A stretch of 64,000 nt of DNA from Mobula hypostoma (GCF_963921235.1 NC_086097.1:118484001-118548000), one strand, 5' to 3'. Shown: positions 2,189 through 23,192, numbered from the stretch's first letter. A program made the numbers and translations. Notes: generated from the letters alone by a model not told the origin.

Positions 2189-2899
2189 AGCGATCGGCAG
2201 CGGCTGGGCCTTGGCGTTTCCCGGGAATTTGCAGGGCAGTCTGCAGCGGCGGGCCTCCATGCCCCACCGCTGGTGGTAGAAACACTATTGTTCGTTGGGC
2301 TCCTCACTCCCATCACCGGGTTTTGTAGGCTCTGCTGCCGGGCCTGGTCTGGTCTGTCGTTGGGCACGCAGCTTGGTGATCTGTGCGACGGGCGCCTCTC
2401 TCTCTTTCCTGGCAATCCACAGCACATCTGCTCGGGCCACCACATCCCGGGGGTTGCTGAAATCTGCGTCGGACAGCAGCAGGCATATGTCCTCGGGCAG
2501 TTGCTCTAGGAACGCCTGCTCAAACATGAGACAGGGTTTGTGTCCTTCAACCAGGGCCAGCATCTCGTTCATTAATGCTGACGGCGGCCTGTCTCCCAAA
2601 CCATCCAGGTGCATTAAGCGGCGTGCTCGTTCGCGCTGTGAGAGTCCGAAAGTCCTTATGAGCAGGGTTTTGAATACTGTGTATTTGCCGTCCTCCGGGG
2701 GCGACTGTATAAACTCCTCAACTTGTGCAGCAGTCTCCTGGTCGAGGGAGCTCAGCACGTAGTAGTAGCGAGTGGACTCCGAGGTTATCTGCCGAATGTG
2801 GAATTGTGCTTCTGCTTGTTCGAACCATAAATGGCGTCGCAGTGTCCAGAAGCTTGGCAGTTCCAACGAAACTGCGTGAACAGATGCAGCGTCGGTCAT
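2189..2899 (-). pseudogene. gag: Gypsy gag with one premature stop (TAG at 2287-2285, probably ex-TGG)
   Basis: MTDAASVHAVSLELPSFW...WFEQAEAQF...LGDRPPSALM; the same frame continues past the stop into the Cys/His motif [18 protein letters not shown]. Confidence 0.85.
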
Positions 2900-2923
2900 C
2901 TCTGGTCCAAATATCGTTTGGGC

Positions 2924-2937
2924 CGTCGGGGTCACCA
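2924..2937 (-). promoter_or_regulatory. Primer-binding site, tRNA-Trp type
   Basis: TGGTGACCCCGACG, 2 nt after the LTR, matches the first 14 nt of the canonical tRNA-Trp PBS (TGGTGACCCCGACGTGAT). Confidence 0.85.
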
Positions 2938-2939
2938 AT

Positions 2940-3134
2940 TGTAGCGATGTGCTACACACAGCGCTAGAATAACCACACGGAGTCGGTGAGTTGGAGTTGC
3001 AATGAAAGAGGTTTATTCAAACTTCGCGGCCCGCTTTAAAGCCTTCCCGTTCCCGCCCTTTTTGCTGCCGGCCCTCTGCCTGCGCGCGCTGTTTCGTGAG
3101 CCGGTTGGTGGGTGTCAGAAAGTGGGTCGCCACA
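2940..3134 (-). repeat. 5' LTR (195 bp) of Gypsy element
   Basis: Minus strand begins TGTGGCGACC and ends CATCGCTACA, contains AATAAA, and abuts the PBS; partner LTR is outside the window. Confidence 0.85.
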
Positions 3135-7329: not shown

Positions 7330-7529
7330 CAGAGAATTAAATGTGTGGCTCAAAGGTTGATGCGGGAAAAAGTGGGCTTGAATTCAAGTGGTGTTGACAC
7401 CAGTGTTGGGGAAGAAGGGTGCTGTTCTGATGGGAAGGGCTCTATCTGAAACATGCTGGGATGAGGGTTCTGGTATATTGCATAACTCGGGCTGTGGATA
7501 GGGCTTTAAACAAAATAGTAGGTGAATGG
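7330..7529 (+). mobile_element. Old CR1 ORF1 (SGNH esterase C-terminus) remnant, target of the RTE insertion
   Basis: Degenerate RELNVWLKG...WEGLYLKHAGMRVLVYCITRAVDRALN parallels INAWLRDW...DGLHLNPRGTNILAGRLAGATEVTLN of the CR1 ORF1 at 19500-20063. Confidence 0.7.
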
Positions 7530-8947
7530 ATGACAGAAGAAATTCCGAATCTTATGGAACGAAGAAGAAAATGTAAGGAAAACGAAAAAGCCTATGTTTC
7601 CTTGCATGCACAGATAACAACCAAGTGCAAGGAAGCAAAAGAAAAGTGGCTTAAGGACAAATGTGAGTTAATAGAACAATTGCAGAAGACCAACAACAGC
7701 AAACGTATGCACGACAAGATCAAAGAGGTCGTAAATCCGAAGAAAAGCAGGGCAACAACAGGATGTATAAAAGCAAAAGATGGCTCTACAATTATGGAAA
7801 AAGGAAAAATAATGCAAAGATGGTCAGAATACATCAAAGACCTATACAACGACAAAGACCGAGAGGACAACATTGATATTGGCAACAACAACAAGGGCCC
7901 AGCAATACTGAAAGAAGAAGTGGAACATGCAATGAAGAGAATGTGAATGGGGAAATCATCAAGACTAGATAACATTCCGGTTGAACTGTCTGAAGCACTA
8001 GAAGATTTTGGTGCAGGGAAATTAACAATCTTATTGAATAGAATATACAAAAGTGGCAAAGTACCAGAAGATCTTTTAAAGACAGTATTCATTGCACTGC
8101 CAAAGACACCAGGTGCAATAGACTGTGGACAACACAGAACAATTAGTTTAATGATCCAACTCACAAAAATTCTACTTAGAATCATCATGCTCAGAAGTAG
8201 AAACAAAATTAAACCAGAGATCTGTGAAGAACAGTGCGGTTTTGTCAAAGGCAAGGAAGCATCAAATGCCACTTATCTATTTAGGAATATTATGGAAAGG
8301 TCAATAGAAGTACAACAAGACCTATACTTCTGTTTCTTTGACTACACAAAAGCCTTTGACACAGTGAAACACTAAGTCATCATGAACATGCTTAAAGACA
8401 TTAATATTGACAGAAAAGATCTAAGAATAATCAGGAATCTCTAGGCAACAAAGTGCAGCCATACGGATAGACAGCAAGATTGGTGAATATCAGTCAATAA
8501 AGTGAGGAGTCAGACAGGATTGTGTTCTATCACCAGACCTGTTCTCCCTGTACAGTGAAAACATCATGAGGACCATACAAGACCTACCTGGAGTAAGTAT
8601 AGGAGGATACAATATCAACAAACTATGGGGATGATACAGTACTGATAGCCAACAATGAAGTAAATTTACAGAAAATAGTATTTACCATCAACATAGAGAG
8701 TGAAAGATTTGGCCTAACCTTAAACAAAAAGAAAACTGAAGTAATGGTAATATCAAAGAAACCCAATATCCCAAACTGTAGGATCGTATTGGGAAATGAA
8801 ATCCTGAAACAAGTTCACAACTTCAGTTGCCTTTGATCATGGGTAACATCTGATGGCAAATGCAAAACAGACATAAAAGTTGCAAGCAACACACATAAAA
8901 GTTGCTGGTGAACGCAGCAGGCCAGGCAGCATCTCTAGGAAGAGGTA

Positions 8948-14999: not shown

Positions 15000-17630
15000 C
15001 AGATGTTAATCAATTACGTTATCCTTGCCTTTATAGTGAGTTATCATAATCACACTACAAAGTCAATCTCCATTGTTGAATTGGAGTTTCATTAACCATT
15101 TTCCAACATAATGTATACACAGGGTCTTGTTCAGCAATTCTACATTTTTCAATATTCATATGATATGGATGTTGTTCTATAGGTTTATTATTACCTGCAT
15201 CTACATCATGTACGGCCACTGTGGTTCTTTTTGGGATATCAGGAAATAAATCCTTAAATATCATAATTAACTGCTTCATCTGCTGCCACTGCTGTGGCTG
15301 TAAATGAACCAGTTTGTCATCAATATTTTCCAAAATAGTCGAATTTGTCAATCTGGCTGAAATAATGTTTGGTTTAAAATAGGCCTCAGATGGATCATCT
15401 AATAAATTTCCAGAGAACTCACATCCATCTTTGTTTACAGCAACCACCACAGCTGCAGTTTGTTTTTCATGACACAGTTTAAGTATATTTATGTGATAAA
15501 ACTGTGTTGGCCTTCGTCTGTCTGGTATTTTGACTACATAGTCCACATCATTAACTTTAGCCATAGTTTCAGAGGGACCATGAAACCTAGTTTGTAGAGG
15601 GTTTGCTTGTACAGAAAGCAAAACAAGCACTTTATCTTCTGGCTTGAATGACCTCATTCTGGCTTGTTTATCATACCAAGTTTTCATTCCTTCCTGGTCT
15701 GATTTTAAATTTTCCTTTGCTAGGTTGCAAGCTCTTTGTAATTTGTCCTTGATTGTCAAAACATAATCTAGCAAATTAACATGCAGGTCATTGTTAACCC
15801 ACTGTTCCTTTAACAATGCCAAAGATCCTCGGACCTGGTGACCAAATACGAGTTCAAAGGGACTAAAGCCTAGGGACTCTTGTACTGACTCCCTTACTGC
15901 AAATAAAATCAAATAAACTCCTTCATCCCAATCCAATCCTTCTCATTTTCAATACAGAATGTCCTAATCATGGTTTTGAGGGTAGAATGGAACCTCTCTA
16001 AGGCCCCTTGGGATTCTGGATGGTATGCAGATTACGTAATCTGTTTGGCTCCCAGTTTGTAAACTACCTGCTGGAATAATCAGACTGAATTTCTTTAGGC
16101 AAACTAAATAATGTAAAAAAATTTTACAAAAGTCTTCGACACGGTTTTGGCTTTTATATTTCTGAGAGGTATTGCCTCTGGAAATCTAGATGCTGTACAC
16201 ATGATAGTTTGCAGATACTGATGACCAGCTTTAGTCTTTGGCAATGGGCCAACACAATTCACAATAACTTTAGAAAAGGGTTCACCAAATGCAGGTATAG
16301 GCTGCAGCGGGGCCACTGGGTGACCTGATTAGGTTTACCCACAACCTGACAAGTGTGACAAGTCATGCAACACGTTGCAAAATCTTTCCTCAACCTAGGC
16401 CAGAAGAATTGTTTTAAAACTTAGTTCACAGTTTTCTTCACACCTAGATATCCACCTGAGGGTTTACTATGGACCAAAGTTAAAATCTCATTCCTATAGG
16501 CTTTAGGAACTACAACCTGGTGAACAATTGCCCATTCCTCACTTGCAGGAACATCAGGTGGTTTCCACTTCCTCATTAACACTCCATCTTTGAAATAGTA
16601 CCCTACTGGCACTTTATCAATCTTCTCACCTGAGAGAGCTTTTTCTTTTAAAGCTACAATCTCAGGGTCTCTGCTCTGTTCTGCTATAAACTCCTTCCTA
16701 GACAGAGATAAATCTTTATTATCAGATCTGGATCCTGGTGAAACAATGAAGGCAGAAAAGTCCGTGACAAGTCATCAAAATTTGATTCCCTTTTTGGGCT
16801 GTCATGAGTAGCCGAATCATGCTGCACAGGACCATCTGCACTCGCAAGTTTCTTGGCCCGAGCTCGAGTTACTGCACATGAGGGATAAATATTAGGATCT
16901 ATCTTTGAATCATCATTGATTGGCTTAGTTATCAGCTGCACTGCAGGAACAAATTTACCACCTGCTAGGACATTCCCTAACAACAAAGAAATAAACTGGG
17001 TCGTAGTCCAATTTTAACAAGTCCTGAAACTAACTCTGACTTCAAAACTACCTTGTGCAGAGGTACAGGAACAATGTCGCACCCAATAGCTCGAATAAGA
17101 TTTACCTCACCAATAGCAGTCTCATCACCAAACTTTAGAACACTGTCTAACATAAGTGACTGAGAAGCTGCAGTATCTCGAAGAATTTTCACCGGTACCA
17201 GGGTTGACCCTTCCTTTACTGAAACAAACCCATCTGATGTAAAATGAAGGAATTCTTTTCTAACCTGACCAGACATATTAGCCTTTGACAGAGCTTCATC
17301 TTTTTTTCTCTGCTCCTTCAGCTGCAAACCTCCTCTGTTTTTCTGCTTCTTCAGTTTCAAGCTGTTTTTGTCATAGCTCAATCTTGAGCTGTTTTCCTCT
17401 TAACTCAGCCTCGAGCTGTTTTTGTTTTAACTCAGCCTCAAACTTTAGTTCTTCCAACTTGAACTGGAGCTCAAGATCACTGGATTTACTTTCAGGAAAT
17501 CTTTTTAACACCACCTCCTCAAAATTCCTCAAAGAAATATATTGCTCAGCTATTCTCCTCTGAATCTGTACCTTTTTCATATCCCATTTTACCACAGAAA
17601 GTCCCTGCTCCTTAGCAATAGCCAACAAGT
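15000..17630 (-). pseudogene. Fragmented gag-protease-integrase-(RT/RNase H remnant) of Gmr1-like element
   Basis: ORF pieces 17371-17628 (coiled-coil gag), 16977-17381 (protease), 16421-16612 and 16104-16316 (integrase: APLQPIPAFGEPFSKVIVNCVGPLP), 15055-15936 (LGFSPFELVFGH, then KPIEQHPY RT start); many stops and frameshifts. Confidence 0.88.
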
Positions 17631-19499: not shown

Positions 19500-20063
19500 T
19501 TGTTGTTTGACACAACCTGCACTGTAGCTCAGAAGGGTAGGGCAAGGAAGAGGAGGGCAGTTGTGATAGGGGACTCGATAGTAAGGGGGTCAGATAGGCG
19601 ATTCTGTGGACGCAGTCCAGAGACCCGGATGGTAGTTTGCCTCCCTGGTGCTAGGGTCCGGGATATTTCTGATCGTGTCCAAGATATCCTGAAGTGGGAG
19701 GGTGAGGAGCCAGAGGTCATGGTACATATAGGTACCAATGACATAGGCAGGAAAAGGGATGAGGTCCTGAAAGGAGAATATAGGGAGCTAGGAAGGGAGT
19801 TGAGAAAAAGGACCGCAAAGGTAGTAATCTCGGGATTACTGCCTGTGCCACGCGACAGTGAGAGTAGGAATACGATGAGGTGGAGGATAAATGCGTGGCT
19901 GAGGGATTGGAGCAGGGGGCAGGGATACAAGTTTTTGGATCATTGGGACCTCTTTTGGCGCAGGCGTGACCTGTACAAAAAGGACGGGTTACACTTGAAT
20001 CCTAGGGGCACCAATATCCTGGCAGGGAGATTAGCGGGGGCTACTGAGGTGACTTTAAACTAG
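19500..20063 (+). CDS. CR1 ORF1p C-terminal SGNH/GDSL esterase domain (5'-truncated; first codons probably flanking DNA)
   Basis: GDSIV, HIGTND and DGLHLN blocks. Confidence 0.9.
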   Translation: MLFDTTCTVAQKGRARKRRAVVIGDSIVRGSDRRFCGRSPETRMVVCLPGARVRDISDRVQDILKWEGEEPEVMVHIGTNDIGRKRDEVLKGEYRELGRELRKRTAKVVISGLLPVPRDSESRNTMRWRINAWLRDWSRGQGYKFLDHWDLFWRRRDLYKKDGLHLNPRGTNILAGRLAGATEVTLN

Positions 20064-23000
20064 AATGGTTGGGGGGTGGGAATCAAATTAAAGAGGCTAG
20101 GCGTGAGGAGGTTAGTTCACAACAGAGGGATGGGAACCAGTGCAGAGAGACAGAGGGGTGTAAAGTGAGGGTAGAAGCAAAAAGTACAAAGGAGAAAAGT
20201 AAAAGTGGCAGGCCAACAAATCCAGGGCAAGCATTAAAAAGGGCCACTTTTCAACATAATTGTATAAGGGCTAAGAGAGTTGTAAAAGAGCGCCTGAAGG
20301 CTTTATGTGTCAATGCAAGGAGCATTCGTAACAAGGTGGATGAATTGAAAGTGCAGATTGTTATTAATGATTATGATATAGTTGGGATCACAAAGACATG
20401 TCTCCAGGGTGACCAGGGATGGGAGCTCAACGTTCAGGGATATTCAATATTCAGGAGGGATAGACATGAAGGAAGGGGAGGTGGGGTGGCGTTGCTGGTT
20501 AAAGAAGAGATTAACGCAATAGAAAGGAAGGACATAAGCCGGGAAGATGTGGAATCGATATGGGTAGAGCTGCGTAACACTAAGGGGCAGAAGACGCTGG
20601 TGGGAGTTGTGTACAGGCCACCTAACAGTAGTAGTGAGGTCGGAGATGGTATTAAACAGGAAATTAGAAATGTGTGCAATAAAGGAACAGCAGTTATAAT
20701 GGGTGACTTCAATCTACATGTAGACTGGGTGAACCAAATTGGTAAAGGTGCTGAGGAAGAGGATTTCTTGGAATGTATGCGGGATGGTTTTTTGAACCAA
20801 CATGTCGAGGAACCAACTAGAGAGCAGGCTATTCTGGACTGGGTTTTGAGCAATGAGGAAGGGTTAATTAGCGATCTTGTCGTGAGAGGCCCCTTGGGTA
20901 AGAGTGACCATAATATGGTGGAATTCTTCATTAAGATGGAGAGTGAGATAGTTAATTCAGAAACAAAGGTTCTGAACTTAAAGAGGGGTAACTTTGAAGG
21001 AATGAGACGTGAATTAGCTAAGATAGACTGGCAAATGACACTTAAAGGATTGACGGTGGATATGCAATGGCAAGCATTTAAAGGTTGCATGGATGAACTA
21101 CAACAATTGTTCATCCCAGTTTGGCAAAAGGATAAATCAAGGAAGGTAGTGCACCCGTGGCTGACAAGAGAAATTAGGGATAGTATCAATTCCAAAGAAG
21201 TAGCATACAAATTAGCCAGAGAAAGTGGCTCACCTGAGGACTGGGAGAAATTCAGAGTTCAGCAGAGGGGGACAAAGGGCTTAATTAGGAAGGGGAAAAA
21301 AGATAATGAGAGAAAACTGGCGGGGAACATAAAAACGGACTGTAAAAGCTTTTATAGATATGTAAAAAGGAAAAGACTGGTAAAGACAAATGTAGGTCCC
21401 CTGCAGACAGAAACAGGTGAATTGATTATGGGGAGCAAGGACATGGCAGACCAATTGAATAATTACTTTGGTTCTGTCTTCACTAAGGAGGACATAAATA
21501 ATCTTCCAGAAATAGTAAGGGACAGAGGGTCCAGTGAGATGGAGGAACTGAGTGAAATACATGTTAGTAGGGAAGTGGTGTTAGGTAAATTGAAGGGATT
21601 GAAGGCAGATAAATCCCCAGGGCCAGATGGTCTGCATCCCAGAGTGCTTAAGGAAGTAGCCCAAGAAATAGTGGATGCATTAGTGATAATTTTTCAAAAC
21701 TCGTTAGATTCTGGACTAGTTCCTGAGGATTGGAGGGTGGCTAATGTAACCCCACTTTTTAAAAAAGGAGGGAGAGAGAAACCGGGGAATTATAGACCGG
21801 TTAGCCTAACGTCGGTGGTGGGGAAACTGCTGGAGTCAGTTATCAAGGATGTGATAACAGCACATTTGGAAAGCGGTGAAATGATCGGACAAAGTCAGCA
21901 TGATTTTGTGAAAGGAAAATCATGTCTGACGAATCTCATAGAATTTTTTGAGGATGTAACTAGTAGAGTGAATAGGGGAGAACCAGTGGATGTGGTATAT
22001 TTGGATTTTCAAAAGGCTTTTGACAAGGTCCCACACAGGAGATTAGTGTGCAAACTTAAAGCACACGGTATTGGGGGTAAGGTATTGGTGTGGGTGGAGA
22101 ATTGGTTAGCAGACAGGAAGCAAAGAGTGGGAATAAACGGGACCTTTTCAGAATGGCAGGCGGTGACTAGTGGGGTACTGCAAGGCTCAGTGCTGGGACC
22201 CCAGTTGTTTACAATATATATTAATGACTTGGATGAGGGAATTAAATGCAGCATCTCCAAGTTTGCGGATGACACGAAGCTGGGTGGCAGTGTTAGCAGT
22301 GAGGAGGATGCTAAGAGGATGCAGAGTGACTTGGATAGGTTGGGTGAGTGGGCAAACTCATGGCAGATGCAATTTAATGTGGATAAATGTGAAGTTATCC
22401 ACTTTGGTGGCAAAAATAGGAAAACAGATTATTATCTGAATGGTGGCCGATTAGGAAAAGGGGAGGTGCAACGAGACCTGGGTGTCATTATACACCAGTC
22501 ATTGAAAGTGGGCATGCAGGTACAGCAGGCGGTGAAAAAGGCGAATGGTATGCTGGCATTTATAGCGAGAGGATTCGAGTACAGGAGCAGGGAGGTACTA
22601 CTGCAGTTGTACAAGGCCTTGGTGAGACCACACCTGGAGTATTGTGTGCAGTTTTGGTCCCCTAATCTGAGGAAAGACATCTTTGCCATAGAGGGAGTAC
22701 AAAGAAGGTTCACCAGATTGATTCCTGGGATGGCAGGACTTTCATATGAAGAAAGACTGGATGAACTGGGCTTGTATTCGTTGGAATTTAGAAGATTGAG
22801 GGGGGATCTGATTGAAACGTATAAGATCCTAAAGGGATTGGACAGGCTGGATGCAGGAAGATTGTTCCCGATGTTGGGGAAGTCCAGAATGAGGGGTCAC
22901 AGTTTGAGGATAGAGGGGAAGCCTTTTAGGACCGAGATTAGGAAAAACTTCTTCACACAGAGAGTGGTGAATCTGTGGAATTCTCTGCCACAGGAAACAG

Positions 23001-23192
23001 TTGAGGCCAGTTCATTGGCTATGTTTAAGAGGGAGTTAGATATGGCCCTTGTGGCTACGGGGGTCAGGGGGTATGGAGGGAAGGCTGGGGCGGTGTTCTG
23101 AGTTGGATGATCAGCCATGATCATAATAAATGGCGGTGCAGGCTTGAAGGGCCGAATGGCCTACTCCTGCACCTATTTTCTATGTTTCTATG
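19517..23192 (+). mobile_element. CR1-clade LINE, 5'-truncated within ORF1, with uninterrupted ORF2 and 3' UTR
   Basis: SGNH esterase ORF1 end, APE+RT ORF2, CR1-type 3' UTR ending TTTTCTATGTTTCTATG. Confidence 0.96.
20069..23101 (+). CDS. CR1 ORF2p (APE endonuclease + reverse transcriptase), 1010 codons
   Basis: NARSIRNK, YRPP, MGDFN, SDH (APE); KSPGPDG, NYRPVSLTS, YLDFQKAFD, QGSVLGP, KFADD (RT). Conserved-site changes: GITKTCL (expected GITETWL), QHDF (QHGF), GVLQGS (GVPQGS). Confidence 0.93.
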   Translation: MGGGNQIKEARREEVSSQQRDGNQCRETEGCKVRVEAKSTKEKSKSGRPTNPGQALKRATFQHNCIRAKRVVKERLKALCVNARSIRNKVDELKVQIVINDYDIVGITKTCLQGDQGWELNVQGYSIFRRDRHEGRGGGVALLVKEEINAIERKDISREDVESIWVELRNTKGQKTLVGVVYRPPNSSSEVGDGIKQEIRNVCNKGTAVIMGDFNLHVDWVNQIGKGAEEEDFLECMRDGFLNQHVEEPTREQAILDWVLSNEEGLISDLVVRGPLGKSDHNMVEFFIKMESEIVNSETKVLNLKRGNFEGMRRELAKIDWQMTLKGLTVDMQWQAFKGCMDELQQLFIPVWQKDKSRKVVHPWLTREIRDSINSKEVAYKLARESGSPEDWEKFRVQQRGTKGLIRKGKKDNERKLAGNIKTDCKSFYRYVKRKRLVKTNVGPLQTETGELIMGSKDMADQLNNYFGSVFTKEDINNLPEIVRDRGSSEMEELSEIHVSREVVLGKLKGLKADKSPGPDGLHPRVLKEVAQEIVDALVIIFQNSLDSGLVPEDWRVANVTPLFKKGGREKPGNYRPVSLTSVVGKLLESVIKDVITAHLESGEMIGQSQHDFVKGKSCLTNLIEFFEDVTSRVNRGEPVDVVYLDFQKAFDKVPHRRLVCKLKAHGIGGKVLVWVENWLADRKQRVGINGTFSEWQAVTSGVLQGSVLGPQLFTIYINDLDEGIKCSISKFADDTKLGGSVSSEEDAKRMQSDLDRLGEWANSWQMQFNVDKCEVIHFGGKNRKTDYYLNGGRLGKGEVQRDLGVIIHQSLKVGMQVQQAVKKANGMLAFIARGFEYRSREVLLQLYKALVRPHLEYCVQFWSPNLRKDIFAIEGVQRRFTRLIPGMAGLSYEERLDELGLYSLEFRRLRGDLIETYKILKGLDRLDAGRLFPMLGKSRMRGHSLRIEGKPFRTEIRKNFFTQRVVNLWNSLPQETVEASSLAMFKRELDMALVATGVRGYGGKAGAVF

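Follow-up and report, generated by a model that had tools for sequence, protein, structure and literature searches.

Recoding and ORF2 translation in described systems

Programmed −1 ribosomal frameshifting (PRF) is a well-known mechanism in viruses and LTR elements. According to a review of frameshifting (PMC5009743), U_UUA_AAC, G_GGA_AAC, and A_AAA_AAC are among the most shifty heptamers, the first being the site of the coronavirus IBV and the two other types also being viral, and G_UU(A) is the form of equine arteritis virus. The same review reports a plant umbravirus whose shift site needs a stop codon just 3′ of it. In arteriviruses, a complex of nsp1beta and PCBP acts at a structure-free motif after a 10-nt spacer (PMC4937337).

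In non-LTR retrotransposons, the start of ORF2 translation is described as an open and important question (PMC3894237). For the Dictyostelium elements TRE5-A and TRE3-A, a −1 frameshift is stated to be needed for ORF2 (PMC5911963). In SART1, ORF2 starts in the −1 frame, at the stop codon of ORF1 (PMC3894237). Most vertebrates have CR1-group elements as their dominant retrotransposons (PMC13343379), and no case of frameshifting in CR1 was found in the literature covered; the 1997 turtle and chicken CR1 papers, which lie outside that scope, may comment on the overlap. In their available portions, PMC13343379, PMC3894237, PMC2881922, PMC3905857, and PMC4120745 do not contain the term ‘frameshift’, nor does the main text of the first contain ‘slippery’ or ‘overlap’, and the translation of ORF2 is not a subject of those portions of PMC13343379; the review PMC5009743 does not mention CR1, and the frameshift passages of PMC11835228 concern retroviruses.

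The CR1 junction described here resembles viral −1 PRF in its heptamers, its phase, and the placing of a polymerase at −1 behind an abundant upstream protein (PMC5009743), but differs in its host, a non-LTR retrotransposon, in the lack of a detectable hairpin, and in a stop codon that abuts the heptamer. TRE5-A and TRE3-A are likewise APE-type non-LTR elements with a −1 frameshift for ORF2 (PMC5911963), although they are amoebal and target tRNA genes, whereas the elements considered here are animal CR1s with an esterase ORF1. With the canonical vertebrate CR1 of PMC13343379 they share the esterase ORF1, APE, and RT, and the junction matches shark and ray consensus rows in the available part of its supplement. 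We consider, with a probability of roughly 0.8, that −1 frameshifting at this junction gives an ORF1-ORF2 fusion; both the slippage and its rate are what we infer from sequence comparison.

The CR1 copy in the window

The window is a 64,000-nucleotide stretch of the Mobula hypostoma genome (NC_086097.1:118484001-118548000; genome size 3.48 Gb). Comparisons were based on 15 lineage representatives, namely six subfamilies from the same genome and nine of 36 retrieved metagenome loci (those left out were truncated, junction-broken, or L2-like), which form only about 5–6 groups below 60% identity. The features, all on the + strand, are as follows.

19519..23192, +, young CR1 family A copy, 5′-truncated, with a 3′ end of (TTTCTATG)n; 98.4% ungapped identity to the full-length copy L153
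19530..20063, +, 3′ part of ORF1 with the SGNH/GDSL esterase domain (Pfam PF13472, E 1e-16), ending in ...EVTLN* by frame reading
20054..20060, +, slippery heptamer T_TTA_AAC in X_XXY_YYZ phase in ORF1, from the sequence and the synonymous-site test
20061..20063, +, ORF1 stop TAG abutting the heptamer; TAG/TAA in 15/15 lineage representatives, TGA in none
20065..20091, +, AUG mini-ORF of eight codons in the +1 frame, not the ORF2 start; out of frame in sibling copies too
20071..20080, +, G-run GGGGGG-T-GGG, starting 11 nt past the heptamer and a candidate stimulator on its 3′ side; conserved in representatives
20054..20305, +, AUG-less linker of 84 codons, starting at the heptamer and reaching the first endonuclease strand, open only at −1 (stop counts in L153)
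20048..23101, +, ORF2 frame with APE endonuclease and reverse transcriptase (Pfam PF03372, PF14529, PF00078), first ATG at 20699
7331..7521, +, old fragment of a CR1 family B ORF1 end, in which TTTAAAC is in phase at 7505-7511 and the stop has decayed; 78-79% identity to family B copies

ORF1 ends with ACT TTA AAC TAG at 20052-63. The −1 frame relative to it is that of ORF2, which is preceded by a TGA at 20045-47 and is open over 1017 codons (20048-23101). No ATG occurs in this frame before codon 218, which sits midway through the Pfam endonuclease match (residues 102-288). The original prediction, made from the sequence of the window, had described a phased heptamer adjoining the TAG, an ORF2 open from 20048 with no early AUG, an out-of-frame ATG at 20065, and a G-rich stretch 6 nt after the heptamer, and each of these coordinates was confirmed (GG at 20067, with the G6 run at 20071-76). 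The heptamer TTTAAAC alone is not rare, as the window has five copies of it on one strand and two on the other; what exceeds chance is its phase, position, and conservation, rather than its mere presence.

The copy combines an ORF2 carrying APE and RT with an SGNH esterase ORF1, as expected of a canonical CR1; in the full copy L153, the ORF1 frame spans 341 codons from stop to stop. CR1 LINEs end 3′ in short tandem repeats and are frequently truncated at their 5′ end, and both the (TTTCTATG)n tail and the truncation at 19519 fit this trait. In pairwise comparisons, the reverse transcriptase of the family is 55-60% identical to bird-like and invertebrate-like loci and 28% identical to an L2-like locus. 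The nearest named relatives of its ORF1 come from rays and sharks, and the junction resembles consensus rows named CR1 in the available part of the PMC13343379 supplement. Because the copy is 5′-truncated and carries a Lys where sibling copies have a conserved endonuclease Glu, it is a dead element in which the junction is preserved. The catalytic positions were taken from Pfam and from motifs that we presume to apply, including the identity of this Glu motif, since the first 320 residues of ORF2 gave no match among solved structures.

The family B fragment had been seen in the original prediction as a much older CR1 relic keeping the same phased heptamer. The phased TTTAAAC does stand at 7505-11, but its esterase is only 51% identical to that of the family A copy and belongs to a different CR1 family; the stop position reads AAA, and about 10 nt further begins a fragment unlike CR1 ORF2. 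That fragment (7522-8270) has no Pfam match and no similarity to CR1 ORF2; by its motifs, it looks like an RTE-type LINE ORF.

Elsewhere in the window, positions 24540-57161 are occupied by a tandem satellite of ~32.6 kb, with a 35-bp unit and higher-order periods of 70 and 105 bp, which gives rise to the window’s many Pro-rich open frames. Two open frames on the − strand (2285-3016 and 15055-15942) look, as judged by eye, like pieces of LTR-retrotransposon gag/pol.

Junction layout in genomic copies

The layout is found across the family. The heptamer followed by TAA or TAG is intact in 28 of 30 copies retrieved with the junction DNA, and in 25/30, 12/12, and 12/12 copies retrieved with three protein queries; the first of these queries ends in GN, so that the 25/30 set was not selected for the heptamer. 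Older copies are decayed: among 30 old copies of family B, 20 retain both heptamer and stop, and the heptamer itself is intact in 22/30 copies of family B and 25/30 of family C.

Family A is young, with many near-identical ORF1 copies. In its two intact full-length copies, the open ORF2 frame, measured from the heptamer, has 1015 and 1004 codons, and the first Met is codon 216 and 207, respectively. As this lies about 100 codons past the endonuclease Glu motif, no AUG in the ORF2 frame could give family A a complete ORF2p. Subfamilies A2, A3, and D also have no Met ahead of the endonuclease. The original prediction had noted that a different G-run length could bring the ATG at 20065 into frame; an in-frame ATG within 10 codons was found in 0/30 and 0/12 copies of two sets containing family A, and among 32 family A records (one locus occurring twice, 31 matched), 28 keep the in-frame spacing across the G-run.

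Between ORF1 and the endonuclease, only one frame is usable. In the sibling copy L153, the linker contains 0, 6, and 8 stops in the −1, 0, and +1 frames. The phase to ORF2 is −1 in all 15 representatives, and the −1 frame is stop-free from heptamer to endonuclease in 14 of them, with linkers of 23-93 codons; the count of 14 is inflated by the choice of L018, L028, and L043 as representatives for their open −1 frame. A 27-nt in-frame linker deletion (approximately window positions 20257-20283) recurs in L005, L008, L129, L133, L138, and L154, which are young copies including an intact one.

In principle, splicing could also produce the fusion or a separate ORF2 mRNA at the RNA level, as could a polymerase that slips on the T/A or G run and inserts a base. 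A single extra base near the junction would be enough, as seen in individual copies with a fused frame: in the family D copy L151 (1237-4527), a longer G-run just before the heptamer joins ORF1 and ORF2 into 1097 codons. Two gene models also read through the junction, and these and L151 are each a single copy; among 26 longer proteins, a weak search gave no natural single-ORF fusion lineage. Runs of three T and three A are short for polymerase slippage, and the resulting changes would be copied into new insertions, yet the standard spacing persists in 28 of the 31 matched family A records mentioned above. No GT..AG joint was present among the 15 listed of 46 joints, in contigs from 4 of 24 runs whose RNA status was guessed, an observation given no weight here. 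Of the routes considered, an origin at the RNA level is the least probable, and very unlikely.

Constraint on nucleotides and exchange of heptamers

The original prediction had proposed conservation at synonymous sites as a check of −1 frameshifting, and this conservation is indeed strong. Across the representatives, whose ORF1s go down to about 25% identity, the terminal Leu is encoded by TTA in 14/14 and the terminal Asn by AAC in 15/15. As control columns, five other conserved Leu use TTA in only 5/69 cases, and another conserved Asn uses AAC in 4/14. The base preceding the two terminal codons is T in 13 representatives and G in two. Both exceptions are known slippery forms: L091 ends in CAG GGA AAC TAG, that is, G_GGA_AAC, and its −1 frame runs open for 930 codons, covering endonuclease and RT; L096 has G_TTA_AAC, with ORF2 at −1. 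On these comparisons, the constraint acts on nucleotides and not on the peptide alone. The three L2-like esterase loci have no heptamer and no G-run, and their stop is TGA.

In L095 (1675-1684), two phased heptamers, T_TTT_TTA and T_TTA_AAC, overlap before the stop, and the linker has just 23 codons.

Distant ORF1 proteins and consensus elements

Clustering at 50% yielded 150 esterase representatives, 101 of which have the catalytic motif and a sufficiently long tail (94 with a CR1-like motif and seven with Pro after the catalytic His). A slip-compatible C-terminal tripeptide is found in 56 of the 94 CR1-like proteins, versus 3.7% of background positions, and in 2/7 of those with Pro after the catalytic His; the remaining 38/94 have no compatible end. 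GN ends are preceded by Gln in 9/9 cases, as G_GGA_AAC allows, and LN is preceded by Q, E, K, M, or W, which cannot supply the needed U, in 1/52 cases versus 17% nearby. A further group has K-N fixed 25 residues past the catalytic Asp, the ending expected of A_AAA_AAC.

The KN and FF/FL types are known from protein sequence only; viral contigs gave no match to DNA for KN- or FF-ending lineages, and genome contigs gave one weak bacterial match. On a quick tree of the esterase core, with the tail excluded and the FF label permissive, the LN, GN, KN, and FF types are intermingled; a clade containing the three L2-like loci is well supported and has none of these end types, bar one doubtful FF label.

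Some single proteins stand apart. At the heptamer position, ORF1 ends in EN or SN in P0112, P0167, P0121, and P0125, which could be non-canonical slip sites or decayed copies. Among P0041, P0209, and P0220, CR1 ORF1 sequence carries the label of a Proteus mirabilis hydrolase and lies within gene models called ribosomal protein S24 and hydroxyacid oxidase 2, which is likely contamination or mis-annotation.

The end of ORF1 might be conserved for another purpose, either as a C-terminal Leu-Asn signal or as a site where a protein binds RNA or DNA, with ORF2 reached by an unrelated route such as internal initiation. The T/A run could serve as a binding site, and no canonical stimulator fold was found. 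A peptide signal, in turn, would not fix synonymous codons, and the peptide varies between LN, GN, and KN while the X_XXY_YYZ rule holds. With ORF2 at −1 in every representative as well, such a role in place of frameshifting is very unlikely.

Start codons beside the ORF1 stop

The available part of the PMC13343379 supplement contains 23 matches to TTTAAACTA, 17 of which, by our reading, lie at the ORF1 end of consensus elements, a search that selected for the heptamer and has no denominator. The ORF1-end rows are labelled as sharks, rays, chimaera, bowfin, coelacanth, frog, and crocodilians. Three shark rows carry TAATG, a stop-start of the SART1 type.

Such motifs bear on termination-reinitiation, in which ribosomes that have stopped at the end of ORF1 would start again close by, using an AUG or a near-cognate codon in frame with ORF2, and make a separate ORF2p. 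An in-frame AUG two nt after the stop (codon 5) is present in four of the seven bird-like loci with readable sequence, and a near-cognate TTG lies at 20069 in the window copy. L1 is also a case of termination-reinitiation. The UAAUG of SART1 provides a further precedent (PMC3894237), although SART1 needs an AUG overlapping the stop, whereas family A has TAGAATG, whose AUG is not in frame with ORF2. No start codon is conserved at any position. Moreover, reinitiation requires neither the TTA and AAC codons, nor an XXX triplet, nor an exchange for G_GGA_AAC, and the lineages that do bear an AUG retain the heptamer. Reinitiation remains a rival because some bird-like and shark lineages carry an in-frame AUG beside the stop, but as a general explanation it is improbable. 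An in-frame linker Met is also present in families B and C and in loci L091, L095, and L096, which speaks against a view based on frameshifting only. In lineages with an in-frame AUG or linker Met, reinitiation could operate alone or additionally.

What could stimulate the proposed shift

The −1 frameshift would normally call for a stimulator, and the original prediction had proposed a G-quadruplex. A run of 4-6 Gs does start +8 to +13 nt after the heptamer in all 15 representatives, mostly with a GGG another 1-3 nt on; in background windows, the frequency of a run of four or more Gs is 4.5%. Quadruplex patterns are found in 0/15 (three-tier) and 8/15 (two-tier) representatives; no conserved hairpin was detected at 14 junctions (folding z-scores −1.6 to +1.6), and the G-run has no common long-range partner, the best partners sitting at differing places per lineage. 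Of the virus-style frameshift proposed originally, comparative evidence strongly supports the −1 shift giving an esterase-APE-RT fusion and does not support the quadruplex.

Some types of stimulator were rejected as candidates. Structure-stimulated PRF of the coronavirus type, with a stable fold 5-9 nt after the heptamer, does not agree with folding z-scores of about 0, computed for pseudoknot-free structures, and the missing three-tier quadruplex. A G-quadruplex or hairpin as stimulator was set aside as not conserved. In shark families A, C, and D, the stop is followed by UGGGA, the tether motif of caliciviruses, which is absent in B, bird-like, and invertebrate-like loci and is also on the wrong side of the stop.

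The ORF1 stop is TAA or TAG in every representative, though TGA would keep the same −1-frame Leu. By analogy, the pause may come from the adjacent UAR stop, through slow termination, and from a protein bound to the G-run ~10 nt downstream, and not from folded RNA, a suggestion we advance weakly. The −2/−1 PRF at PRRSV nsp2 (nsp1beta-PCBP) is alike in having no downstream fold, a short low-complexity motif, and a 10-nt spacer (PMC4937337), but its motif is C-rich and the one here G-rich, so that the analogy is one of spacing.

Proposed mechanism and significance

Four features were observed directly: the geometry of the junction, its conservation at the nucleotide level, the exchange of heptamers in DNA, and a linker open only at −1. 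As judged from sequence, the signal is real, deeply conserved, and of the recoding type. In the proposed mechanism, ORF1 ends on a phased U_UUA_AAC with its stop, and the ORF2 frame, set back by one base, carries on from there with no AUG. A minority of ribosomes would slip by −1 at the heptamer, possibly assisted by pausing at the UAR stop and by the G-run acting as a protein-binding site, to give a predicted fusion of ~1,320 residues comprising esterase, linker, endonuclease, and reverse transcriptase. The remaining ribosomes would terminate at the ORF1 stop and release ORF1p.

A wider version would have esterase CR1 LINEs of vertebrates and invertebrates make a fusion of the Gag-Pol kind by a −1 shift at interchangeable heptamers, with fold-free stimulation by the UAR stop and a protein on the G-run 10 nt downstream. 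Taken as a whole, this version is speculative and rather doubtful. If true, it would mean that a protein-stimulated frameshift is encoded in animal genomes and was kept across the animal CR1 radiation.

If −1 frameshifting does occur at the CR1 junction, CR1 ORF2p would be a fusion with ORF1p at its N-terminus, produced at a constant ratio like retroviral Gag-Pol. Annotations that place the start of ORF2 at an internal Met would then be truncated, and a working CR1 assay would require an intact junction. The junction itself would be a short, naturally occurring signal for frameshifting that shows no evident RNA fold.
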